Of a stretch of 64,000 nt of DNA, positions 11,820 to 37,172 are shown one piece after another. Source of the DNA: Spirochaetia bacterium. GTDB taxonomy: Bacteria > Spirochaetota > Spirochaetia > CAKZLE01. The stretch's first letter is position 1, and each line of letters opens with the position of its first letter. The stretch spans positions 2,912,001-2,976,000 of the forward strand of contig OY782041.1 of NCBI GenBank assembly GCA_963677595.1, read 5' to 3'. A program made the position numbers and the translations under genes. The notes beneath the pieces are model-generated. The model had not been told where the DNA came from, did not search any database, and saw only the letters and a list, made by a program, of their open reading frames with translations.

Positions 11820-12034
11820 TCATTTCCTAGAGTTTTGGCTGTTCTCCTGGACCCTGAATGCAACGATCTCCCTGATCAGCCCATAGGGGACTGGCTTGGA
11901 GTAGGGGAACTGCACCGAGCCCTTTCCCTGCTTATAGGCAGACAGCCTCTCAACAAAGGCCTCATGGCCTGTGGGGGTGGCATAGAAGCCGAGGTGCTTC
12001 TTCTGTGCCGCGAAATAGACCAGGGGGCTACCGC
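11820..12034 (-). pseudogene. 3' fragment duplicate of the DUF1801/YdhG gene
   Basis: 11851-12030 matches 14341-14520 with 8 mismatches in 180 bp (hand count); it has its own C-terminus and stop but no 5' half. Confidence 0.85.
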
Positions 12035-12066
12035 AGGGGCTAAAGCCGAGCAGAACTGTGCTCTCG

Positions 12067-14007
12067 TTAATCAACCTCATCAAAAGTGAATATATGGGCA
12101 CTTCCCGAATCCATTCCGTTGTCATCATCAAAAAAGGACCCGCAAAGTACCTGGTTCCCGCTGAGAGAGACTGAAGCCCCAAAATAGTCTTCGGCAGCGC
12201 CGTCTGGAGCCGTGATCTTTGTTCCTGTATCCCAGTTCCCACTATCGTCTTGCTGGAATATATACGCGCTTCCTGAACCTGCCCCATGATCACCATCGTA
12301 CTTTGCTCCCACGACAGCCAGATTCCCGTTGATTGATACTGATTCTCCGAATCTATCATAGTCGACTGCATCATGGGCAGTCAGCTTGATTTCGGAATCC
12401 CAGATACCACCGATTCTCCTGTATATATACGCACTTCCTCTTGAATACCCTCCATCACTGGTGAGAGGGGATCCTGCGATGAGCGTATCTCCTTCTATTG
12501 CGATAGAGGTGCTGAAGTAATCATATCCTTCCCCGTCAGAAGCGCTTATGTTTGAGTTCAGGTTCCAGGTCCCGCTGAGATCCCTGTCATAGATATAGGC
12601 ACTTCCCGAATCCACTCCATTTTCAGTATCATCGCGGACGGCTCCGACTGCCAGACAATCACCGCTTATACTGACCGAATGACCGAATCTGTCCCCTTCA
12701 GCACCATCATCGGGTACCAGCTTCGTCTGTTCTGACCAATTGCCTGCTGTATCCCGATGGAACAGATAGACGCTTCCTGAAGCTGGTGTGAATCCACTGG
12801 GGTAAACGGGCGCTCCGACTACGGCATAATCACCGCTTATCCCGACGGAATAGCCGAACTCGTCACCGGCAGCGATATCACCGGAAATGATGCGTGTTCC
12901 GTCATCCCAGTTCCCGTCTCCATTCCGATGGAAGATATAGGCAGATCCTGCAGTGTCGCCGTTCGCATCATCCCAGGGAGCTCCCACGATGACATCTTCC
13001 TCGCTGATGGCAACTGACAGACCGAAGGCATCATTTTCAGTACCATCAGAAGCTGATATGTTCGTACCGGTATCCCAACTCCCATCCTCTTCCCGATGGA
13101 AGATATAGGCACTGCCCGAACTGTCCCCATGATCATCATCACCCCAGGCACTGATCACCGCATAATCTCCGTTGATTGCAGTATACTGGCCAAAGTAATC
13201 AAGAGAAGCTCCATCAGCAGCCAGGAGCTTCACATAATCCATCCACCTGGCATAGAAGGTCCTGGTGCCTGTTGAGCCCTCAAGTATCGTATCTGACTCT
13301 GTAGTGTATTCAGCATCACTGTACCAGCCGATAAAATAACTCTCGCTCTTTGTCGGTGGATTGAGAGTTATGAGCTCATCGAGGATCGTATATGTTAACG
13401 GATTCACACCATTGGTGCCGCCGGAGAGCATGTAGGTGATCGTATAGGTCTCAATGACCCATTTGGCATAGATGACCTGATCGATGAGGGTCCCTTCCGG
13501 GATCGTCGGGGATGGTACCGTGAATCCCGCATCACTATACCAGCCGGCAAAGTCATAGCCGTCCTTGACAGGATCGATGAATGTGATGGTACCATCCTCG
13601 ATAGTGAAACTGTTGGGGTTGTTTACACTGTTGACCCCTTCATCCATGATGTACGTGATCATGAACGGGGCTACCAGCCATTTCGCATAGAAGACCCTGT
13701 TCCCGGTCGAACCGGAGGGGATCGTTGATGCTTCTGTGGTGAATCCTGCATCGCTGTACCAGCCGATAAAGTCATAGCCTGTCTTGACCGGGTCAGTCAG
13801 GGTGATGAGGTCGTCCTCGGATGTATAGGTTGCAGGGTTTGTACCGTTGGTCCCGCCATCCAGTTCATAGTGTATGGTAAATGACTCCACAGGAGGATCC
13901 AAGGTGCAGACTAAGAGGCTGGTACTTACTAGCAGGAATATGGTGATCAGCAGGACATGCTGTATTGCATTTTTTTTAGATGTCGATCGAACCGAGTGTT
14001 CCTGCAC
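12067..14007 (-). CDS. Surface (lipo)protein with 3 InlB B-repeat/Flg_new domains and an FG-GAP repeat beta-propeller
   Basis: Three ITY.L.GG.N...P.K.GY.F.GWYSDA...YAKW repeats; about seven FG.SVAISGD...VGAP.DD..G..SGSAYIF repeats; hydrophobic leader ending LLVC. Confidence 0.85.
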   Translation of the reverse strand: MQEHSVRSTSKKNAIQHVLLITIFLLVSTSLLVCTLDPPVESFTIHYELDGGTNGTNPATYTSEDDLITLTDPVKTGYDFIGWYSDAGFTTEASTIPSGSTGNRVFYAKWLVAPFMITYIMDEGVNSVNNPNSFTIEDGTITFIDPVKDGYDFAGWYSDAGFTVPSPTIPEGTLIDQVIYAKWVIETYTITYMLSGGTNGVNPLTYTILDELITLNPPTKSESYFIGWYSDAEYTTESDTILEGSTGTRTFYARWMDYVKLLAADGASLDYFGQYTAINGDYAVISAWGDDDHGDSSGSAYIFHREEDGSWDTGTNISASDGTENDAFGLSVAISEEDVIVGAPWDDANGDTAGSAYIFHRNGDGNWDDGTRIISGDIAAGDEFGYSVGISGDYAVVGAPVYPSGFTPASGSVYLFHRDTAGNWSEQTKLVPDDGAEGDRFGHSVSISGDCLAVGAVRDDTENGVDSGSAYIYDRDLSGTWNLNSNISASDGEGYDYFSTSIAIEGDTLIAGSPLTSDGGYSRGSAYIYRRIGGIWDSEIKLTAHDAVDYDRFGESVSINGNLAVVGAKYDGDHGAGSGSAYIFQQDDSGNWDTGTKITAPDGAAEDYFGASVSLSGNQVLCGSFFDDDNGMDSGSAHIFTFDEVD

Positions 14008-14309
14008 TGTTCCTCCTCAGGTTCTAAGACAGGATACCCGGTTGGACTAGGCATTTGACTGAACGTGCGGGATAGGCTGTCTGATCCCTAGTAACAGTCT
14101 ACTACTGCTCATCATGAACTACAATGGTTGGCATGGATATATATTTCGGCGATTAGTAATGTATTGGACATGATCTCCCAGATCCTGACATGGTCTTGTG
14201 AAGGAAAGACCTGATGTCTTGATACCGGGATCGTATGACGTGAAGGGTATAGATGGGATAGGAGCTTATGAGGCTGCAGAACTGCGGAACTATCGGGAAG
14301 GACCAGGAC

Positions 14310-14663
14310 TCACTTCACGTCATCATCGGTATTCTCGGAGACCCGGAATGCAACGATCTCCCTGATCAGCCCATAGGGGACCGGCTGGGAGTAGGGGAAC
14401 TGCACCGAGCCCTTTCCCTGCTTATAGGCAGACAGCTTCTCAACAAAGGCCTCATGGCCTGTGGGGGTGGCATAGAAGCCAAGGTGCTTCTTCTGAGCCG
14501 CGAAATAGACCAGGGGCCTGCCGCGGAGCTTGTAGGCGGGCATGCCGTAGGAGATGTTCTCTTCTGCCTCAGGTGCGCACTCCCTGATGATCTCCCGAAC
14601 CTTCTTGAGGATGGGCTGGACAGCTTCCGGCTGGGCCTGTATGTAGGTATCGACTGGGTTCAT
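14310..14663 (-). CDS. DUF1801/YdhG-family protein
   Basis: VDTYI...[15 protein letters not shown]...[14 protein letters not shown]...KGSVQFP. Confidence 0.88.
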
Positions 14664-26157: not shown

Positions 26158-27668
26158 GGATCAATCACTTTTTCTGTGGGATGAAGTTATGGAGTATCAA
26201 AGAATAGGAGAAGAGGAAAAAGAGTCTGCTGCGATTGCATAAGAAGGGGCCATCCCTGTATTGTTAGGTTACGACACAAAACAAACAGGAAGACAGCCCC
26301 GCATGCAATATATCACGTTACCTTCAGGATTGATAGGCTTCACCAATGACAAGACGGAAATTGTAAAGACCACGACGAACAGAGAGATGTATCTGCTGTA
26401 TGGTCAACTGGAAAGCAATAGTGATCAATGTCATTGTCCCAAATGCGGGAATACCATGCACATCCATAACCGTTATGAAGTCACTCTCAGACACCTCTGC
26501 TTCGGGCATCGAATGAGCTGTCTACGGTTCACCAAGCTCAGATACCTGTGCCCATCATGCCGAAGGACGCAGATGCAGGAGGTACCGTTTCAGGCCCAGG
26601 GGCACCGCATCAGCGAGGAATTGTTGACCTATACGAGGGACCTGCTTGCCTATGGCCTTACGAACAAGGAAGTGGCATACCTGACTGGTTTTGGGAAGAA
26701 CACTGTCAAGGATATTGACCTGCAGCGACTTAAGGAACGGTACACCATCGACGGGAAGCGCCTGATCAAACCAGAGAAGCAAGCCAGGATCCTGGGTATC
26801 GATGAGTTCCTGCTACATAAGGGACATAAGTATGCGGTGGTGATCATCGACATGGAAAGCGGGCACATCCTGTGGTTGGCGCATGGGAAGAAGAAGGCCT
26901 CGGTGCATGCCTTCATCGACCATGTCGGTGAGGATTGGATGGATGGCGTCGAAGCTGTCGCCTGCGACATGAACAGCGATTTTCAGGAGGTGTTCGAGGA
27001 GCGCTGTGCCCACATACAGCCTGTTTTCGACCACTTTCATATCGTCCGCAACTTCAATGACAAGGTCGTGGGGCAGATACGCAAGGATGAACAGAAGAGG
27101 CTGATTGCCGAGGGGGACCTCGAGGGAGCCAAGTCGCTTAAGGGGTGTAAGTACATCCTCGCCTCTTCGAAGCAAACCCTTGCGAGAAAAGATGAAGATG
27201 CCGGATCGGTCATCAACAAAGGCTCCTCCCTATTCAGCAGGGAACACTATGTCCTCAAAGGTGGACATCTGGACAAATATGAGGAGTTACTCAGACAGAA
27301 TAAGCTCTTGTTTACCTTAGATTTGATCAAGGAGAAGCTCAGCGGGGCTTACAAAATGACCGATGAACCATCCATGGCCAATGCTATCTCGGAAATCATG
27401 GATATGTGCTGGGACTCCAAGAACACCCACCTGCGATGGTTTAGAAGATTACTTGACAACCACTTCGAAGGCATCATCGCACATGCGACCTTTGCCATCT
27501 CTTCCGGAAAGATTGAAGGTATCAATAACCGTACCAAGACCCTGCGAAGGCAAGGATATGGGTATGCTGATGATGATTATTTCTTCCTCAAGCTCTTTGA
27601 TGCTAGTAGGAGGACCTACATCAGGAACTCTATCGCTGCTAGAATCCCACAAGATTTATGATTGAGCC
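26158..27668 (+). mobile_element. ISL3-family insertion sequence
   Basis: Imperfect 24-bp terminal IRs (GGATCAATCA...TGTGGGA vs GGCTCAATCA...TGTGGGA, 17/24) around an ISL3 transposase; no target duplication visible. Confidence 0.8.
26303..27661 (+). CDS. ISL3-family transposase
   Basis: Zinc finger CPKCG...CPSC, LGIDEF, VACDM, FDHFH, KIEGINNRTKTLRRQGYG. Confidence 0.93.
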   Translation: MQYITLPSGLIGFTNDKTEIVKTTTNREMYLLYGQLESNSDQCHCPKCGNTMHIHNRYEVTLRHLCFGHRMSCLRFTKLRYLCPSCRRTQMQEVPFQAQGHRISEELLTYTRDLLAYGLTNKEVAYLTGFGKNTVKDIDLQRLKERYTIDGKRLIKPEKQARILGIDEFLLHKGHKYAVVIIDMESGHILWLAHGKKKASVHAFIDHVGEDWMDGVEAVACDMNSDFQEVFEERCAHIQPVFDHFHIVRNFNDKVVGQIRKDEQKRLIAEGDLEGAKSLKGCKYILASSKQTLARKDEDAGSVINKGSSLFSREHYVLKGGHLDKYEELLRQNKLLFTLDLIKEKLSGAYKMTDEPSMANAISEIMDMCWDSKNTHLRWFRRLLDNHFEGIIAHATFAISSGKIEGINNRTKTLRRQGYGYADDDYFFLKLFDASRRTYIRNSIAARIPQDL

Positions 27669-27985
27669 ATCAATATACAAGAAAAGATATAGATGTTAAA
27701 ATTAAAGAGGAAATTGTTCCAAGATTATTGACCTCTTTAGATATTGATTTCAAAGGCAAAACAATAGCTGGTTGTGATTTGTTTAATGGGAAATTCAACT
27801 GGATTAGATCTAAAGATGCTGTGAATGATGCTATGCTTGTAATGAATTATAATTTATATTTAAAGCTTGAATTAGGGAAAAGTAGAGACGATTGGACTGT
27901 CGATGATTGTAAAATTGCTTTAAAACTGCTACCACAAAGAACTGAAATCGTTGAAGAAGTATTGAGAGCTTATATTGAAGAGTAA
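27669..27985 (+). pseudogene. 3' remnant of an AT-rich gene truncated by ISL3
   Basis: Open frame starts exactly at the IS end, has no own start/RBS and is followed closely by the next ORF. Confidence 0.55.
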
Positions 27986-28015
27986 ATCTTAATGAATCAG
28001 ATTAGGGGGAAGGAC

Positions 28016-28342
28016 ATGAATCAAATAGAAAAGGAAATGTATAAGCTGATATATTCACCACTTATAACCCCAAAGAACTTAGTTGAAAATATATATTTAG
28101 AGAATTATGAATCAATAAAATTCATTAAAACTAATGGGAGAATAGTTTGCGAATTACATTGCACCTTGCCCCATGGTGAAATTGCACTCTTTACATATTT
28201 TTTTGCAGACAATGATTTTCTTGAAAAAATACAAAAACAGTTACCAGGTAGAGAACCAGAAATTGTATTTGATAGAAAAGAAAAAATGGAATCTCTTTCT
28301 TCTAGATTTTACAAAAAACGAAAAACCAAACGTGCAGTTTAA
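28016..28342 (+). CDS. Hypothetical protein (AT-rich)
   Basis: 108-aa ORF with a GGAAGG RBS; no recognised family. Confidence 0.6.
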   Translation: MNQIEKEMYKLIYSPLITPKNLVENIYLENYESIKFIKTNGRIVCELHCTLPHGEIALFTYFFADNDFLEKIQKQLPGREPEIVFDRKEKMESLSSRFYKKRKTKRAV

Positions 28343-28377: not shown

Positions 28378-28494
28378 CTAATGAAAACATGGAATGATAC
28401 TAGCATTTGTCCCAATCATGATAGTCAGGGGATCAATATAGAGCGTTCCTTCCTTATAACTTTTCCAGTTATTGACTACCAGCTTGGTGATCAT
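28378..28494 (-). pseudogene. 5' stub of an AAA ATPase paralogous to 30486..31739
   Basis: GGAGG RBS, MITKLVVNNWKSYKEGTLYIDPLTIMIGTNAS|IIPCFH*; 28399-28472 is identical to 31644-31717 (74 bp). Confidence 0.85.
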
Positions 28495-28645
28495 TGATGC
28501 CCTCCATGTTCATTACTGTGGAAATAGTATAACCTAAAAATGGTTACGGATTGAAACACAATGCCGGGAATTATTGATGCTTGCCTGGCAGTGAAAAACC
28601 TGTTTTTCTGTATCTTCTTTGCAATTTTAATGATAGACTTTAGAT

Positions 28646-29800
28646 ATGCAAACTTATATTCCAAGAATGAAAGAACCTGTGCTTCTAAAGCATCTCTCAG
28701 CCTTTCCTGCAGTAGCACTGCTCGGGGCCAGGCAGGTTGGTAAATCCACCTTAGCTAAACAGGTTATCGAGACAGTTCAGGATGCAGTCTACCTGGACCT
28801 GGAAGATCCCAGGGACTTTGCCAAGCTTCAGGAACCACTGGCATTCCTGGAAGCGAACAAACACCATATGATCTGTTTTGATGAGATCCAGCGGTATCCT
28901 GATCTCTTTCATATACTTCGTTCCCATATCGATGCACAGAAACGTCCGGGTCAGTTTCTGCTGCTGGGTTCTGCTTCACGGGACCTGATCAGGCAGGGTT
29001 CAGAGACTCTGGCAGGGAGAATTTCTTTTGTGGAGATCGGCCCATTCACCATCTCAGAGATTGAGGACTTCAATCGGCTGTGGCTGCAGGGAGGCTATCC
29101 GGTAAGTTACGGTTTGGATACGGAGTTGAGTTTTGACTGGAGGATCAACTATATCAGGACCTTCCTCGAGCGTGATATCCCGCAGCTGGGAATCACGATA
29201 CCGGCAGAGACTCTGCGCAGATTCTGGACCATGCTTGCGCATCTCAACGGGAGTATCGTGAACTACAGCAGCATCGCCGCTTCTATGGGACGTTCAGGCC
29301 CCACGATCAGGAACTATTTCGATATCCTTGAAGGGACATTCATCATAAGGAGACTGCAGCCGTATGTAACCAACACGAAAAAGCGGCTGGTCAAATCTCC
29401 CAAGCTCTATATCCGGGATACCGGCCTCACGCACTGCCTGCTCGGGATCGAGACGTTCAATGACCTGTTGGGCCATCCGGGACTTGGCAGCAGCTATGAA
29501 GCCGCCATCTTATCGAGTCTCATAGAACGGTATCCACGCTATTCGCCGAGTTTCTACCGCTCCTCCAGTGGAGCGGAAGTCGACCTGATCCTGGAAAAAG
29601 GGAAACGGCGTTTTGCTTTTGATATTACCGTCAGTTCTGCACCGAAGATCCCGCGAGGTTTCTATGAAGCCCTGAAGGTCATAGAACCTGAACAGGCGTT
29701 CGTGACCGCACCGGTAGATGCACCGTATCCTGTAGGGGACAACATTCTGGTTTGCCCGATCAGGGAGCTGCTGCATCTACTTGATAAGCTGCTGGGTTGA
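28646..29800 (+). CDS. AAA_14 ATPase with DUF4143 domain (COG1373)
   Basis: GARQVGKST, FDEIQ, LLGSAS, GGYP, KSPKLYIRDTG, EVDLI. Confidence 0.92.
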   Translation: MQTYIPRMKEPVLLKHLSAFPAVALLGARQVGKSTLAKQVIETVQDAVYLDLEDPRDFAKLQEPLAFLEANKHHMICFDEIQRYPDLFHILRSHIDAQKRPGQFLLLGSASRDLIRQGSETLAGRISFVEIGPFTISEIEDFNRLWLQGGYPVSYGLDTELSFDWRINYIRTFLERDIPQLGITIPAETLRRFWTMLAHLNGSIVNYSSIAASMGRSGPTIRNYFDILEGTFIIRRLQPYVTNTKKRLVKSPKLYIRDTGLTHCLLGIETFNDLLGHPGLGSSYEAAILSSLIERYPRYSPSFYRSSSGAEVDLILEKGKRRFAFDITVSSAPKIPRGFYEALKVIEPEQAFVTAPVDAPYPVGDNILVCPIRELLHLLDKLLG

Positions 29801-29861: not shown

Positions 29862-29942
29862 GTGATATACTCAGAGAACAAAGATAAAAGAGGTAGTAGG
29901 TATGAAGAATATTCTCTGTTTCGGAGATTCTAACACCTGGGG
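29862..29942 (+). pseudogene. Promoter plus first codons (MKNILCFGDSNTWG) of an SGNH hydrolase gene (copy A)
   Basis: Near-identical to 33753-33833; similarity stops after ACACCTGGGG (29933-29942). Confidence 0.88.
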
Positions 29943-29970
29943 AGAATGATCCTACCTCCTATGATACCTT

Positions 29971-30489
29971 TTATGATCTAGTTCTTCTCCTCCTTGGAAC
30001 ATCCAATTGAGGTTGTACCGGTTCATATGTCTTCAAGCCGGCATCCCCGGTCAGTATCTCTACAACACATGGTATTTTGGCATAATATTCTGCTACATCT
30101 TTGATTGTGGCATCTCCCAGGGATAGACGGCTAGCTGCCAAATCAGGCCAGGAACCTGCAAGCAAGATCATGTTTTCCTTAGACCACAACTCTGCTTGGA
30201 CTGAGAAGGCAGCCCAAGGTGATTCCTCACAAGCACTTTTCATGATCAAGTCCCCTAAATCCTTGGCACGTTCATACCTAAACTCCGGGGCTTGGGCTAT
30301 ATGGTTTCCTGTTTCGATTATTGTTGCCAAAGGGAGAACAAATGTTGTTCCCGCAGATTCTTCTTCCTGTATTTTTATTTGTAATCTTGTCTTGTCCCAC
30401 TCGTCAACTTCAGGTCCGCAACGATCCATGCCAGGGACTCCCAGCCAGACACAGAGGATGCTTGTATCAATTATGAGAACTTTCCTCAT
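29971..30489 (-). CDS. PIN-like domain protein
   Basis: IIDTSIL...IIETGNHIAQ...SLGDATI...ILTGDAGL acidic tetrad pattern; ATGA overlap with the ATPase. Confidence 0.7.
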   Translation of the reverse strand: MRKVLIIDTSILCVWLGVPGMDRCGPEVDEWDKTRLQIKIQEEESAGTTFVLPLATIIETGNHIAQAPEFRYERAKDLGDLIMKSACEESPWAAFSVQAELWSKENMILLAGSWPDLAASRLSLGDATIKDVAEYYAKIPCVVEILTGDAGLKTYEPVQPQLDVPRRRRTRS

Positions 30490-31739
30490 TGCAGAGCTCC
30501 CTTGTCCAATGATCTTTCGATTGTTCCTTCAGAAGAAAGTCTTCCCAAGGATCCTCCAGCCATCATTTTGGGAAGTTGGGCCAAGTCTTCCAATTGAAGC
30601 AGGTTACTTGTACCTGTTGATCGGTCTCTATGAATCACCGTTATAAACGGTACCATTTGTGGTCCTGCAGCATCGAGAATAGCAGGATTGTGCGTAGTTA
30701 CAATAACATCAATACCTCGTTCTTTCCCTAGGGTTCGAAGCATTGTCAGCAGCAACTTAGCCCTGGATGGATGCAGGCCGTTATCAACTTCTTCAATAAC
30801 CAGCAGGCTGTTAGGATCCCTTGTCAGCATTGCTGTCACAATAGATAGATAGCGTAATGTTCCATCAGACATCCCACGGGCATCAACAATATGCACGTTA
30901 GCTTCTGACCACCCCTCCTCACAATACAGCATCGCATCATTTTGGAATTTCCCTATGGGTTCAGTCCATACTCTTCTTATATCTTTCTCAGGGATGGTTT
31001 TCAGGTAATCTGTGAGGGTTTTCTCTACTTCCTTCTTCTTGTCAGGTTCCAAAGCTGCTAAAACTCCTGAAAGATTGGATCCATCAGAAAGGAGTTTTTC
31101 TGAGAAAGCTGTATAATCTCTCATGTGACTGGGGATAGGGTCAAAGACGAATATGTTCTGTAATTGGTTTAGAACTACTTTTATCCCTGCCTGTACTTCC
31201 TTTATCAGATTCAGCCCCTCTGATTGGGTTAATATGACATGAGAACGATTCAGGTCAATTCGTTTGCTGGGACCTCTTTTACTGGTAGCAAAATATGCAG
31301 GGATCCCGGGAGTTGAATCATTGGCTTCCTGTGTATAATACAATCTTCTTTCTTTTGATACGGTGCCTCTTGCATTATATTTAAAGGATTTCAGTTCCTC
31401 GAAGAAGACTTCGGCTTTGATGCCATTTACTTGTACAGACAGGTGGTATTCATATGTGAGGTTATCAGCCTCATTCTCGATCGTGATCGTGATGGAAAAC
31501 CTGCTCTCTGGTTTCAGGCAGATCCATTCTAATCCTCCCCGTAATGCATGCAGACTAACATCACCAGTAATCGCAGGATAGAGTCCAACGCCAGAGGAAA
31601 TTCGCTGCAAGAACAGGAAGGCATCGAGGATATTCGATTTACCACTAGCATTTGTCCCAATCATGATAGTCAGGGGATCAATATAGAGCGTTCCTTCCTT
31701 ATAACTTTTCCAGTTATGTACTACCATCTTCGTAAGCAT
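30486..31739 (-). CDS. AAA_21/ABC-type ATPase
   Basis: GTNASGKSN, MSDGTLR, IEEVDNGLHP, TTHNP. Confidence 0.9.
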   Translation of the reverse strand: MLTKMVVHNWKSYKEGTLYIDPLTIMIGTNASGKSNILDAFLFLQRISSGVGLYPAITGDVSLHALRGGLEWICLKPESRFSITITIENEADNLTYEYHLSVQVNGIKAEVFFEELKSFKYNARGTVSKERRLYYTQEANDSTPGIPAYFATSKRGPSKRIDLNRSHVILTQSEGLNLIKEVQAGIKVVLNQLQNIFVFDPIPSHMRDYTAFSEKLLSDGSNLSGVLAALEPDKKKEVEKTLTDYLKTIPEKDIRRVWTEPIGKFQNDAMLYCEEGWSEANVHIVDARGMSDGTLRYLSIVTAMLTRDPNSLLVIEEVDNGLHPSRAKLLLTMLRTLGKERGIDVIVTTHNPAILDAAGPQMVPFITVIHRDRSTGTSNLLQLEDLAQLPKMMAGGSLGRLSSEGTIERSLDKGALQ

Positions 31740-31903
31740 AGCCGTCCTCCAAGTGCATTGATATGGAAATAATACAAATTACAGTTACTTAATTCTATGT
31801 TAACCAGTTTGCTTTTATTGTTCTTTAAGTTCCTTTTCCGTATGCACGTTAGTATATCACACAAATGGAAGGCAATTGTGAGGTAACGTTATAAAACAGT
31901 AAT

Positions 31904-33695
31904 CTATAGTTCCCACTCCATTTTCGTACCACACAAGATGGAGGCCCCCGATATGTGATGCTGGAACCCAATTTCGGTTCAGTATCCCTTATCTCCTTTT
32001 AAATGGCTTGTTCTCACTGAAATACCCACTATAAATCTGATAAATCAGACACAATGCTGACCATCTTCTTGTCACAGGAGGAGGAATGTGGTACTATTGT
32101 GGTACGAATACAGAAGTACCACAAGGAGTATGCAGTGGCACACTACATCAGATACCAGAACAAGGCAGATAAGACCTATGCGCAGATTATTGATGCGGTC
32201 AGGGTGGACGGCAAGAAGGAAAACCACTATATCGCCAGCCTCGGTACGGTAATCGATAAAGAGCAAGGGGTCTTCAGATCAAAAGAGCGAGGGATCTACA
32301 CCTATACCCTGGAGGACGGATACGGTGAAGCTCCTCGAGAGATTGAGATGCTCCATGAAGGCATGAAGCGGGAGCGGCTTATCCTTGATTTCGGTGACAG
32401 TTATATGCTGGATCACTATCTGAGGAATTCCAGTCCGTTCTTTGATCTGTTCTCTGCTATCCTGCCACAACAGCGTGACAGTCTGTTTGCGCTTCTGTTC
32501 TTCAGGCTCCTCACTGATAAAAAGGCCTATATGTATGCACAGTCCTGGCATGAAGGGAATTATGCAAGCATTCTCTATCCAAACGCACGACTCCAGAGTC
32601 AGCGGATCAGTGATTTCCTCACCGCACTTGGTGATGAAGAGGTGGGCCGGGGCTTTTTCTCTTCCTATCTGAACCAGCTGTATCCGGATCATACCGGCAC
32701 GGGGATTCTCATTGACAGTACCGGGCTGCATAATGCGGTGGATATGCCGTTGACCGCACTGAGCAACCATAATGGAGACATCAACTTTGAGACACGGTTG
32801 ATCTATGTGATTGACCGGTTCAACGGCATGCCGCTGTACCTGCGCTATTGCCCCGGGAATGTAGTCGATGTAACCACATTGTGCACCACGGTAGAGGAGT
32901 TACGGCAGTTAGGAGTACGGACAGACTTTGCGATCGTAGATGCCGGATACTATAGTGAAGATAACGTTGATGCGCTTTATGCAGCTGATATAGCTTTTGT
33001 CTCCCGAGTGGGCCCCAACAGGAAGCTGTGCAAGACGCTTATCGAAACGCATGCCCCAAGTATCCGACAGGCACAGTATATGGTGCCGTTTGGTAATCGA
33101 ATCGTGTATATGAGGCGATTCTCCGTTGATTTGCATGGACATCCCGGCTATGCCTATTTGGGCGTTGACATGGACAGTCGCAATTTGCAGGAGAAGAAGG
33201 TGTCCCTGCAGGCGCTCAATGACAGGCTCCCATTTGATGAGATAGACAAGAAGATGGGGAAGTTAGGCTCCTTTGTCCTCGTATCCTCTCAGAAGATGGA
33301 GTGCCAGGATATGCTGCCCCTGTATTATACGAGAACACAGGTGGAGCAGGTATTTGATATCGCCAAGAATAATGCTGATGTGGTTCCGCTCAGGATTCAT
33401 GGAGAACAGACCCTTCGAGGTCATCTGCTGCTCACATTTCTCGCAACGGTACTGTTTCAGCAACTTCAGAAAGACCTGGTACTGCATACGCAGAAAAAGG
33501 ACAAACTGAACCCTGAAGGCAGTTTCTTCGTACTGAGAAACCAGAAGTGTAAAGTATATGATCGACTGGTGATTCCACAAGAACCGACAAAGAAGATGAA
33601 TGACATCTATAGACTTCTAAAGGTTCCTACCCCAACTTCCATCCCCTATACGCGGTTGTAAGTCCTGTGGTACGAAAAGGGGGTGGGAACTATAG
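31904..33695 (+). mobile_element. IS1634-like (IS4 superfamily) insertion sequence, 1792 bp
   Basis: 30-bp terminal IRs CTATAGTTCCCAC(T/C)CC(A/C)TTTTCGTACCACA (28/30) and a 5-bp target duplication GTAAT (31899-31903, 33696-33700). Confidence 0.88.
32135..33661 (+). CDS. DDE transposase (IS1634-like)
   Basis: LIDSTG, PGNVVDVTTL, IVDAGYYS, YYTRTQVEQVF, GHLLLTFLA; GTG start after AAGGAG. Confidence 0.88.
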   Translation: MAHYIRYQNKADKTYAQIIDAVRVDGKKENHYIASLGTVIDKEQGVFRSKERGIYTYTLEDGYGEAPREIEMLHEGMKRERLILDFGDSYMLDHYLRNSSPFFDLFSAILPQQRDSLFALLFFRLLTDKKAYMYAQSWHEGNYASILYPNARLQSQRISDFLTALGDEEVGRGFFSSYLNQLYPDHTGTGILIDSTGLHNAVDMPLTALSNHNGDINFETRLIYVIDRFNGMPLYLRYCPGNVVDVTTLCTTVEELRQLGVRTDFAIVDAGYYSEDNVDALYAADIAFVSRVGPNRKLCKTLIETHAPSIRQAQYMVPFGNRIVYMRRFSVDLHGHPGYAYLGVDMDSRNLQEKKVSLQALNDRLPFDEIDKKMGKLGSFVLVSSQKMECQDMLPLYYTRTQVEQVFDIAKNNADVVPLRIHGEQTLRGHLLLTFLATVLFQQLQKDLVLHTQKKDKLNPEGSFFVLRNQKCKVYDRLVIPQEPTKKMNDIYRLLKVPTPTSIPYTRL

Positions 33696-33792
33696 GTAAT
33701 TTGTTCGAGAGACCTATGGTCCGCAAATAGGCATGCAAGATTGTGCAAATCAGTGATATACTCAGAGAACAAAGATATAAGAGGTAGTAGGT

Positions 33793-34416
33793 ATGAAGAA
33801 TATTCTCTGTTTCGGAGACTCGAACACCTGGGGGTACAATCCGGTCTCTAAGGAACGGTACGACCGGGATACCCGGTGGACCGGGGTCCTGCAGAAGCTG
33901 ATCGGGAGTGAGTACTACATCATCGAGGAGGGGCTCAACGGAAGGACCACGGTCTTCGATGACCCGATCGAAGAGGGTAGGTGCGGCAAGGTGTACCTTG
34001 AACCCTGCCTTATCTCCCACAAGCCGCTGGACCTGGTCGTGCTGATGCTCGGGACCAATGACCTGAAGAAGCGGTTCGACGTCTCTGCCGATGATATCGC
34101 CAGAGGGATAGAACTCCTGATCGAGAAGATACAGAAGAGCGAGACCGGAAGAGGCGGTGCCGCTCCTGAAATACTCCTGCTTTCCCCAGCCGTGATCAAG
34201 GAGACCGGGGAGTTCAGCGAGATGTTCGCAGGTGGAGAAGAGAAGTCGAAGAGGTTCGCCCGGAAGTATCAGGCAATCGCATCGTTACACGGCTGTCACT
34301 TCCTCGATACCGCACCGTTCATGGCGGTCTCGGATGTGGACGGGATCCACTTCCCTCCTGAAGCTCATAAGACGTTGGCGGAGCGGTTGCACGATGTGGT
34401 AGCAGAACTCATATAA
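33793..34416 (+). CDS. SGNH/GDSL hydrolase (intact copy B)
   Basis: FGDSNTWG, EEGLNGRTT, MLGTND and DGIH catalytic blocks. Confidence 0.93.
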   Translation: MKNILCFGDSNTWGYNPVSKERYDRDTRWTGVLQKLIGSEYYIIEEGLNGRTTVFDDPIEEGRCGKVYLEPCLISHKPLDLVVLMLGTNDLKKRFDVSADDIARGIELLIEKIQKSETGRGGAAPEILLLSPAVIKETGEFSEMFAGGEEKSKRFARKYQAIASLHGCHFLDTAPFMAVSDVDGIHFPPEAHKTLAERLHDVVAELI

Positions 34417-34496
34417 CACGTCTTGCTTCACGTTTTGCTCTTTACTTACGGATAAAATATGCTATACTTAATATATAAGAGTAGTAGAAAGTATAC

Positions 34497-35114
34497 ATGC
34501 GTAAAGATGGCAGACAAACAGAGACAGAGAAAGCACTGAAGATAATCGAAGAATACCATGGTCTTATTCGGACCTCCCAGGCTATAGCACTCGGCATTCA
34601 TCCGAGAGCATTGTATGCATTGCGGGATTCCGGGGAGTTGATGCAGTTAACAAGAGGGGTTTACTGCCTGCCCCATTATGAATTCTCAGGGAGTATGGAC
34701 CTTGAGGTTGTTGCTGTTCGAATCCCTAAGGCTGTCGTTTGTCTGGTTTCAGCATTGGCTTTTCATGAGATGACTACTCATATACCGCATACTGTTTCCA
34801 TAGCGATCCCGAAATCTATGAAAAACCCCATTCTGGAGTTTCCGCCCATAGAGGTGTATCATTTTTCGAAGAACCCATATGAGACTGGGATTGAGTACCA
34901 TGAAAAAAAGCATGTTACAATAGCTGTATACGATCGTGAGAAGACCATAATTGACTGCTTCAAGTTCAGAAACACCATAGGTCTTGATATTGCCATTGAA
35001 GCGCTGAAAACCTATAGACAGCAACAACGGCCTGATTTTATCAAACTGATTGAATATGCACGTATCTGCCGGGTAGAGAAGGTCATGACACCGTATCTGG
35101 AGATGCTGCAATGA
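34497..35114 (+). CDS. Type IV TA antitoxin, AbiEi family
   Basis: L..LTRGVY, CLVSALAFHEMTT, YDREKTIIDCFKFRNTIG. Confidence 0.88.
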   Translation: MRKDGRQTETEKALKIIEEYHGLIRTSQAIALGIHPRALYALRDSGELMQLTRGVYCLPHYEFSGSMDLEVVAVRIPKAVVCLVSALAFHEMTTHIPHTVSIAIPKSMKNPILEFPPIEVYHFSKNPYETGIEYHEKKHVTIAVYDREKTIIDCFKFRNTIGLDIAIEALKTYRQQQRPDFIKLIEYARICRVEKVMTPYLEMLQ

Positions 35115-36025
35115 AAGAGATTAAGAACCTGCCTGCATCGGTTAGACAACGCCTCATGAATGAGGCGAGAAAAGAGAAAAGGCCATATGATGAACTCGTA
35201 CGGTACTATGCTATGGAACGTTTTCTTTTTCGGTTGTCAGAATCAGTATTCTCAAGACAGTATATCTTGAAGGGCGGGCTTCTTCTTAAGCTGTGGGATT
35301 CCTCAAAAACACGGTCCACCATGGATATTGATATGAAGGGTGTTGCCAGTAACCATGAGCAGGAAGTACTGAACCAGATTGAGAGGATCCTCTCTCATCC
35401 TGTTGTGCCTGATGGTATCATCTTCGATCCGAGTAGTCTGAAAGTGGAGAGCATTACCGATGATTCTGAGTATTCCGGCCTAAGAATAAAGTTCTTGGGC
35501 TTTATTGGGACCCAGCGAATCCCCATGCAGCTGGATATCGGGTTCGGTGATGTGATTACCCCTGAACCAATAGTGCTAGAGTATCCCACTATATTGGATT
35601 TCCCTGAACCGAAGATTTTCTGCTATAACATGGAAAGTGTCATTGCTGAAAAGTTTGAGGCAATGATCAGTTTAGGAAGAATCAACAGCAGAATGAAAGA
35701 TTTCTATGATATCTGGTTGTTGGCTTCACAAAACCATTTTGATTTTCATTCTCTGGAAACTGCTATTGAGGCGACTTTACGAAATAGGGGGACCAGAATA
35801 CCCGAAGATCTTAATGTATTCTCAGAAGGGTTCATAACTTCAAAACAAGCACAGTGGGAAGCTTATAAAAAACGAACTAAGCTCGATACCGTACCACTGG
35901 AGTTTGCGGTGATCGTACGGCTGATATCATGTTTCTTAACTCCTATTGTTGAGCATTTGATTTATGATTCTATTTATTACGTAAAGCTGCATTGGGTTCC
36001 CACTGATGGGTGGATGGATGCTTGA
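35111..36025 (+). CDS. Nucleotidyltransferase toxin, AbiEii/AbiGii family
   Basis: ILKGG, RSTMDID, LDIGFGD, IAEKFEA, SRMKDFYDI; ATGA overlap. Confidence 0.92.
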   Translation: MKEIKNLPASVRQRLMNEARKEKRPYDELVRYYAMERFLFRLSESVFSRQYILKGGLLLKLWDSSKTRSTMDIDMKGVASNHEQEVLNQIERILSHPVVPDGIIFDPSSLKVESITDDSEYSGLRIKFLGFIGTQRIPMQLDIGFGDVITPEPIVLEYPTILDFPEPKIFCYNMESVIAEKFEAMISLGRINSRMKDFYDIWLLASQNHFDFHSLETAIEATLRNRGTRIPEDLNVFSEGFITSKQAQWEAYKKRTKLDTVPLEFAVIVRLISCFLTPIVEHLIYDSIYYVKLHWVPTDGWMDA

Positions 36026-36102
36026 GAAAGAGAACAGCTACTCGTCCTATGCAAAGAAGAGAGTATCTTCTTTAAGTATTTATTCATTACTATAAAGTCT
36101 GT

Positions 36103-36698
36103 ACACCTGGGGGTACGACCCGGTATCGAAGGAGTGGTATGACCGCGATACCCGGTGGACCGGTATCCTGCAGAAGCTGCTCGGGAGTGAGTACTACATC
36201 ATCGAGGAGGGGCTCAACGGAAGGACTACGGTCTTCGATGACCCGATCGAGGAGGGAAGGTGCGGCAAGGTGTACCTTGAACCCTGCCTTATCTCCCACA
36301 AGCCGCTGGACCTGGTCGTGCTGATGCTCGGGACCAATGACCTGAAGAAGCGGTTCGACGTCTCTGCCGATGATATCGCCAGAGGGATTGAACTCCTGAA
36401 CGAGAAGATCCAGAAGAGCGGGACGGGCAGGGATGGTGCCGCTCCTGCTATCCTCCTGCTTGCACCTGCAGTGATCAAGGAGACCGGGGAGTTCGGTGAG
36501 ATGTTCGCAGGTGGAGAAGAGAAGTCGAAGAGATTCGCAAGGAAGTATCAGGCAATCGCATCGTTACACGGATGTTATTTCCTCGATACCGCACCGTGCA
36601 TGGAGGTCTCGGATGTGGACGGGATCCACTTCCCGCCTGAGGCCCATAAGACGTTGGCGGAGAAGCTGGAACTTAAGCTGCAGGACTTGTTTTCGTAA
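36103..36698 (+). pseudogene. SGNH hydrolase lacking its first ~11 codons (copy C)
   Basis: About 92% identical to 33824-34383 by hand count; begins at ACACCTGGGG; frame stays open to its stop; catalytic GDS is missing. Confidence 0.88.
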
Positions 36699-36713
36699 CC
36701 TGCAGGGTGTCCC

Positions 36714-37172
36714 TCACACCGAGATCCTGGCAGAACCAGGGAACCAGGGACCGTTGTTCCTGGAGGATCCCTGCGCCTTCTTTGGACGCAGTGCTGCTGT
36801 GAACACGGCCTTGAGCTTCCTCACGATATTTTCCGGGATGGTGTAATGTTCCCGCCGGGAGAGCTTCAGGTAGTACATGGCGACCTTGCGGTCGGCATCC
36901 CCCTGACGGTTGGGGTGGCAGAAGTAGCGCTCGAGGGTCCGCAGGCCGGAGAGCCTGTCCTGGTTCATCTCATAGAGCCCGGCAAGTTCCATGTAGGGTG
37001 CCGATGATATCCTGGAGGGGACGAGGCTGCAGGTTTCGAACTCCCTGAGCAGGATGATCTTCGTCAGGATCTCGATGGCAGAATCGTAATCTCTCTTCTG
37101 TTTCAACCTCTCGACCAACTCTGCACAGGCGATGGCATCGCCGACGAGACTCTCCTTGAAGTCGTTATCCAT
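36714..37172 (-). CDS. Hypothetical helical (TPR-like) protein
   Basis: GAGGAGG RBS before MDNDFKE; APYMELAGLY...LERY helical pattern. Confidence 0.55.
   Translation of the reverse strand: MDNDFKESLVGDAIACAELVERLKQKRDYDSAIEILTKIILLREFETCSLVPSRISSAPYMELAGLYEMNQDRLSGLRTLERYFCHPNRQGDADRKVAMYYLKLSRREHYTIPENIVRKLKAVFTAALRPKKAQGSSRNNGPWFPGSARISV

Follow-up and report, generated by a model that had tools for sequence, protein, structure and literature searches.

A probable two-module locus of predicted defence genes at an SGNH hydrolase gene in a Spirochaetia genome

Introduction

How can foreign genes accumulate inside a resident gene, leave one copy of it whole and do so with no recombinase of their own in sight? 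The question is raised by a 64,000-nucleotide window (contig OY782041.1, positions 2,912,001 to 2,976,000) from the genome of a Spirochaetia bacterium, in which three pieces of an SGNH hydrolase gene are interspersed with predicted anti-phage genes: a 5' stub (copy A), an intact gene (copy B) and a piece without its 5' end (copy C), all sharing a 10-bp core. A first-pass annotation of the locus had offered two explanations, favouring in its headline a single self-complementing island mobilized in trans over two events that reused one crossover point. The locus structure is real, and it behaves as two modules, here called cassettes Y and X, rather than as one island. Our favoured explanation, to which we give about an even chance, is that these are two nested insertion-duplication cassettes which lack a recombinase and are moved by host homologous recombination across long SGNH repeats.

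Organization of the locus

Copy A (29862..29942, plus strand; all such positions refer to the window) comprises a ribosome-binding site and SGNH codons 1–13, forms the left repeat of cassette Y and ends with the core (29933-29942). Its ATG lies at 29902 and reads MKNILCFGDSNTWGE before a stop, giving 15 codons when it stands alone. A putative extended –10 element (TGnTATACT) was read by eye; the SGNH promoter went uncalled in a promoter scan, which showed no surplus of sites. Copy B (33753..34416, plus strand) consists of the promoter region and an intact 207-aa SGNH/GDSL hydrolase (ORF 33793-34416); its 5' 81 bp are the right repeat of Y, and its positions 33824-34383 are the left repeat of X. 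Copy C (36103..36698, plus strand) runs from the core onward and forms the right repeat of X. It has no start codon, is missing the catalytic GDS motif, and meets an in-frame stop four codons upstream of the core codons.

The A/B repeat (29862-29942 versus 33753-33833) is 81 bp long and 96.3% identical, with mismatches at 29887, 29928 and 29931, and the B/C repeat (33824-34383 versus 36103-36662) is 560 bp long and 92.3% identical, with 43 mismatches. The two repeats overlap in the core, ACACCTGGGG, an arrangement that two random breakpoints in the 624-bp gene would give with p=0.017. When A and C are fused over the core, a single 208-aa ORF results. The three-copy structure with its shared 10-mer, the uninterrupted A+C frame and the identity of about 92% given for copy B by the first-pass annotation are thus all borne out by measurement. 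Cassette Y, 3891 bp long with its insertion sequence (IS) and 2094 bp from core to core once this is subtracted, holds the PDC-M07 defence pair, the promoter and the first 13 codons; cassette X, 2279 bp, holds the remainder of the SGNH gene and AbiE. Every ORF of the segment could be assigned, with no integration or transfer gene among them, and a search inside it with PF00589, PF07508 and PF00239 gave no recombinase match, in agreement with the lack of an integrase claimed earlier.

The source genome (G000) is assembled as one contig of 4.33 Mb, with 6.28% contamination. Contigs from the sequencing run X5, perhaps the source sample itself and hence not independent support, cover 29898-31673 and 35171-36195 with no differences and run through the junctions of A and C, the core of B and the joint between B and AbiEi. 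An artefact assembled from mixed strains might be suspected from the contamination in a single-contig assembly and from the two strains held in X5, but these crossings, and the same junction types in G001, a genome of the same genus, make it very improbable. The misassembly that had been named as a possible refutation of the locus did not materialize.

Alleles in related strains

Four sequencing runs (X1, X2, X3 and X5) were compared; one of them, X3 (small share), matched only parts of the IS. X5 contains an IS-free allele (joint from 31898 to 33696, depth 33.5) and a second joint, from 35200 to 36714 (depth 26.5), which loses most of AbiEii, the block left of C and C itself without using the core. 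In another X5 contig (depth 50.5) there is a single additional base near the start of AbiEii, at window position 35139.

The most informative allele comes from X1, where a single 497-base contig (depth 5.6) runs from the end of the PDC-S01 gene upstream of the locus into an uninterrupted SGNH gene. It is A-type at 29887 and B-type from 29928, which places the joint within 29888-29927, to the left of the core. In the stretch 33779-33977 the contig has seven differences from B, of which six were identified; X1 is therefore B-type at at least seven of the first eight sites right of the core that distinguish B from C. It is C-type at 33885, 33886, 33901 and 33972, and a 30-mer at 34144-34173 has five differences from C and 12 from B. 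Distal pieces from X1 and X2 differ from B and from C alike by about 11%; their letters are mixed, and the end resembles C. The uninterrupted allele of X1, switching inside the repeat and not at the fixed core in its one contig, is a mosaic of A, B and C, as exchange across long repeats gives, and not an A+C scar.

An empty A+C allele had been predicted from the structure of the locus. It was not found: the only uninterrupted allele seen is that of X1. Nor was any scar, excision or circle joint present among the six joints listed in the four runs, from whose contigs rare forms drop out. In X1 and X2 neither PDC-M07 nor the greater part of AbiE is covered; at a depth of 2–5 this absence was not used as evidence.

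Arrangement in related genomes

The order comprises six genomes. In G001 the arrangement is SGNH1-AbiEi-AbiEii-P-core-P'-PDC-S01-SGNH2, where P and P' are the arms left and right of the core; the repeats are 587 bp long, and SGNH1 and SGNH2 are both intact and 97% alike. This is an exact circular permutation of the G000 map, opened at the gene rather than at the core, and the att-like core junction is kept. In G003 an SGNH-AbiEi pair with a mosaic SGNH gene lies behind gpmI. The metagenomic contigs L027 and L028, 97% identical to G003 (L027 96.9% over 10.6 kb), have SGNH directly before a membrane-protein gene and no AbiE. In G002 (L144, C249, 41-4059) a PDC-S01 orthologue is followed by HipA-like and VapBC-like genes, as judged by eye, and the same short contig holds a decayed, inverted SGNH 3' end. 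PDC-M07A was not found in any of the five relatives at E 1e-30. The gpmI position holds SGNH in G003, L027 and G004; SGNH is itself accessory in the genus because it is missing there in G000 and G001.

More widely, AbiEi is present in 62 of 401 genomes of the class, and in the best 30 loci SGNH is adjacent only in G000, G001 and G003. SGNH occurs in 122 of the 401, and among the matches listed, 5'-less copies starting from the core, as judged from open-frame lengths, are found only in G000 and G001. SGNH alleles group by host and not by AbiE linkage in all three pairs (support 82/83, 99/100 and 84/93), and their divergence is patchy. Viral contigs gave no SGNH relative and one weak AbiEi match, and a metagenome scan gave no close relative besides L027/L028. 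The two halves of the locus vary separately among relatives.

The core and its arms

The core is the best-conserved 10-mer among six SGNH alleles, with eight of 10 columns invariant. To the left of C lies P (36058..36102, plus strand), a conserved non-coding block in register with SGNH codons 1–11, whose 30–75 bp next to C have two homologous sites in G001 (six tests, each with p<=0.005). At each G001 site the core and then SGNH-like codons follow. The G001 P also aligns with SGNH codons 1–11, the distance from start to core being 30 versus 31 bp; among the 18 left-arm similarity tests run, its comparison with B gave p 0.001-0.002 at 30 and 45 bp, and that with G001's own SGNH2 was not significant. 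P' (29943..29970, plus strand), the 28-bp right arm, is likely a degenerate remnant of SGNH codons 14–22. Its similarity is weak, with p from 0.008 to 0.24 depending on partner and control; against the G001 right arm p was 0.008 by shuffling and 0.038 with the genome control.

Taken together, P-core-P' is likely a degenerate mini-copy, about 60 bp long, of the start of the SGNH gene, with three occurrences in the genus. Phage-type attachment sites (attP) often resemble a degenerate copy of their target. A mini-copy of this appearance would fit a decayed duplicate and an attP alike; its conservation favours a function, and the conserved arm could be a candidate attachment site for an absent recombinase.

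Inspection by eye for dyad symmetry at the core, or for likeness to dif sites or IS ends, gave nothing consistent. The P-core motif occurs once in G000 and twice in G001, and a scan of genomes of GTDB species found it elsewhere at one unrelated, non-SGNH place. Matches in G003, within the start of an ABC gene, and in L163, where SGNH is not present, were taken as chance. Further core-bounded segments had been proposed as a check on the island; the five other copies of ACACCTGGGG in the genome have no SGNH context.

The recombinase expected under the same proposal was likewise not found. G000 has two PF07508 and six PF00589 matches, none of them at the locus, and its serine recombinase genes occur only 50 kb upstream, bounded by their own ssb repeats. 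No recombinase match was present near SGNH in the loci screened, and the serine recombinase loci of G001, G002 and G005 gave no SGNH match except at G001 contig C20, where one P-core-SGNH fragment precedes a serine recombinase gene by about 150 bp.

How the cassettes may have arisen

Under our favoured explanation, X and Y would be gained and lost by homologous recombination over the 560-bp and 81-bp repeats, probably by way of circular intermediates and in dependence on RecA, and the intact copy B would be the point at which the repeats of Y and X meet. The shared core would be an old junction, most likely formed once, by one crossover with or without an enzyme, between an intact SGNH gene and a degenerate P-core-P' at the gene's 10 most-conserved bases; P-core-P' is intact in G001, and both cassettes would have carried the core junction since. 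Directly observed are the repeats, which place long stretches of resident DNA on either side, the cargo, the permuted arrangement of G001 and the allele of a related strain that switches off the core. The explanation is further favoured by the grouping of SGNH alleles by host, by the SGNH-AbiEi pair of G003 set against the AbiE-free contigs L027/L028, by the conservation of the core, by the alignment of the G001 P with the first SGNH codons and by the other recombinase-less inserts of G000. Of the two options put forward at first, two events sharing one crossover point fits better, and the headline view of a self-complementing island is less well supported.

Several observations weigh on the other side. 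P is conserved between G000 and G001 (p<=0.001 at 30, 45 and 75 bp) even though AbiE fourfold sites retain only 31–39% identity, a conservation beyond neutral decay that points to a bound site, and P-core-SGNH is present in G001 C20 without AbiE. The resemblance of G000's own P to B is weak (p 0.04-0.24), and that of P' to C is weak and not significant (p 0.06-0.24). For X1 there is a single contig, at depth 5.6, whose strain diverges by about 5%; the direction of change cannot be read from it, as the G000 state may have been ancestral to the X1 allele, and B and C letters are mixed in its distal part. No circle was seen in the four runs.

A tentative alternative is one non-autonomous element, SGNH-AbiE-attP-cargo-promoter, that has an attP, brings along its target gene in full and borrows a recombinase, most likely a large serine recombinase, in trans. 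It would have inserted at the core in G000 and entered G001 and G003 through its SGNH copy by homologous recombination. This account is as economical as ours, G000 and G001 being permutations of one circular map; the reciprocal junctions are in register, P is conserved at three sites, as an attP arm would be, the ssb serine-recombinase islands of G000 and G001 leave a similar 5' stub and 5'-less remnant, and the C20 fragment places P-core-SGNH beside a serine recombinase gene. Against it stand the lack of an A+C scar or circle joint in the four runs, the X1 switch away from the core, the distance and separate repeats of the G000 serine recombinases, the rarity of P-core and the lack of a recombinase match in the loci screened around SGNH. 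Should it hold, the locus would possibly be a minimal defence satellite, with an attachment site and a full target-gene copy, that has two modes of entry, by a borrowed recombinase or by RecA. It is equally tentative that recombinase entry would split and replace the resident gene, RecA entry would duplicate it, and the G000 and G001 orders would interconvert as a cassette shuffler. If the conserved arm is a real attP, an unrecognized target gene and a two-mode satellite would be defined, together with a testable pair of substrates.

Two further explanations appear improbable. An accordion in place, in which a G001-type array was tandemly duplicated and then suffered two short-homology deletions at the core, needs no DNA transfer and could draw on the upstream ATPase stub and on a faint additional likeness between A and B to the left of the repeat (p=0.016, 35 bp) as signs of older tandem units; the 4–8% divergence of the repeats, its patchiness and the requirement for two independent deletions at the same 10 bases speak against it. 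It is also hardly probable that IS1634-type transposases acted long ago on the cargo segments and left the repeats behind as long target duplications. Long repeats that vary in size have been reported for both IS1549 and IS1634 (PMC2266710), and seven IS copies in G000 have flanking repeats of 94-710 bp, 97–100% identical. Yet X and Y do not end in IS termini, the element within Y made a target duplication of just 5 bp and is missing in one strain, and the G001 order is left unexplained.

Comparison with known systems

In Campbell-type insertion-duplication, a single crossover brings in a circle on which part of a resident gene is present. As at the present locus, foreign DNA ends up between long direct repeats of that gene, which stays intact, and no recombinase is needed; the difference is that here the process would be natural, would have taken place twice, nested, in the same gene, once from either end, and would be linked to an att-like junction that is conserved. 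On this analysis the locus appears to work like an insertion-duplication island, and not like an integrase island or a cis-mobilizable element (CIME), because it has neither an integrase nor a partner.

The Escherichia coli prophage e14 (15 kb), as described in PMC13626634, lies at icd/icdC and replaces only the 3' end of its target, with the intact gene on one side, a displaced pseudogene fragment on the other, and recombination of both on loss. Here an intact gene with a displaced fragment is found twice (B and C; B and A), but genes of a phage or an integrase are missing, and the whole copy has a 5' stub on one side and a 3' remnant on the other; a precise empty core site was not seen in the small sample of relatives. 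Site-specific integrative and mobilizable elements (IMEs) with serine recombinases disrupt target genes, and CIMEs stack segments without integration or transfer genes at one site, according to PMC5704250. Unlike these, the locus keeps one gene copy whole and has no adjacent IME, or integrative and conjugative element, with a matching integrase, the nearest recombinases being those between the ssb repeats; its conserved P arm, for which no activity was seen, may be part of a retained attL or attR. Translocatable units of IS26, whose incorporation is RecA-independent (PMC4196232), likewise form arrays in which direct copies of a single sequence alternate with unique segments and the order can be permuted, but here a hydrolase gene takes the place of the repeated sequence and no transposase is part of it. 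The IS1549/IS1634 type (PMC2266710) shares variable long direct repeats of host DNA, and such ISs are active in G000; X and Y differ in having no IS ends and repeats of 92–96% identity. No report of SGNH genes as integration targets was found in the literature searched, which is not proof of absence.

On the favoured reading, defence genes can be acquired and rearranged with no enzyme supplied by a mobile element itself, an accessory gene serving as the landing pad.

Cargo genes

The gene content claimed at first was confirmed by profiles and PADLOC. Cassette Y encodes, on the minus strand, a PIN-like protein (29971..30489; PDC-M07B) and an AAA_21 ATPase (30486..31739; PDC-M07A), a single operon of ATPase and small B gene as in the PADLOC definition of PDC-M07 (E 1e-161 for A and 3e-46 for B). 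The IS1634-family IS (31904..33695, plus strand), a late passenger present in three copies in the genome, has 30-bp terminal inverted repeats and the 5-bp target duplication, and its transposase scores above the NCBIfam cut-off. Cassette X encodes, on the plus strand, the AbiEi antitoxin/regulator (34497..35114; PF13338) and the adjacent AbiEii nucleotidyltransferase toxin (35111..36025; PF08843), a PADLOC-recognized type IV toxin-antitoxin pair whose activity is predicted from its genes. In G003 AbiEii is lost just past its start. Counting this loss with the X5 frame change and the X5 deletion, the toxin seems to decay repeatedly.

Two features of the same array had been overlooked upstream. 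One is a 134-bp ATPase 5' stub (28399..28532, minus strand; 32 codons and upstream sequence), an older PDC-M07A copy 87% identical to 31644-31777; the other is an AAA_14+DUF4143 ATPase, PADLOC PDC-S01 (28646..29800, plus strand), 85% identical to the G001 cargo between the core junction and SGNH2. An ISL3 transposase and two unassigned low-GC ORFs (107 and 116 aa) at window 26261-28342 cut off the older array on the left. The PDC-S01 protein belongs to an unusually large family, with 27 tblastn matches in G000, and a lone gene of this type lies between 52-bp repeats at G000 1753190-1754714.

Other inserts in the genome

Comparison of G000 with itself, the only genome surveyed in this way, gave 38 low-copy direct-repeat pairs out of 49. 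Under a filter for non-IS inserts of <21 kb with GC >=4 points below their flanks, 18 of the 38 pairs bracket an insert, with repeats of 43-992 bp and 88–100% identity; cassette X is among them, and a few may be plain paralogue pairs. Y fails the filter because its flanks are also low in GC. Only one of the 18, the ssb island, has a PF00589, PF07508 or PF00239 match, so the recombinase-less route, with 17 such long-repeat inserts, seems common in G000, and many of the other inserts appear to come and go by the same host homologous recombination. Sixteen inserts were examined, and in 10 of them a stop codon of a neighbouring long ORF falls within the repeat or directly beside it, some of these ORFs perhaps being spurious.

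The recombinase-less inserts carry sugar ABC clusters, toxin-antitoxin and defence genes, and their repeats are diverged and often derive from the 3' end of the neighbouring gene. Examples in G000 lie at 144584-147039, 1552956-1560712, 3453552-3461522 and 4202837-4209972, and one lies inside the window at 11842-14524, where 193-bp repeats (94%) surround a 646-aa ORF. The ssb serine-recombinase island (G000:C1:2879816-2891850, about 20–32 kb before the window start) has a 204-bp, 94% duplicate of a promoter and first 10 codons, which is the architecture of Y, and its first recombinase gene appears 5'-truncated. G001 C20 carries another serine-recombinase island, different from this one, at the identical ssb codon; its recombinase unit is present twice, in copies 99.4% alike. 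The seven IS copies with long flanking repeats belong to two related types, of 630 aa (five copies) and 597 aa (two copies), that resemble IS1549/IS1634, the family being unconfirmed by profile; they lie in G000:C1 at 492820, 571329, 589005, 784874, 2572738, 756995 and 1575878.

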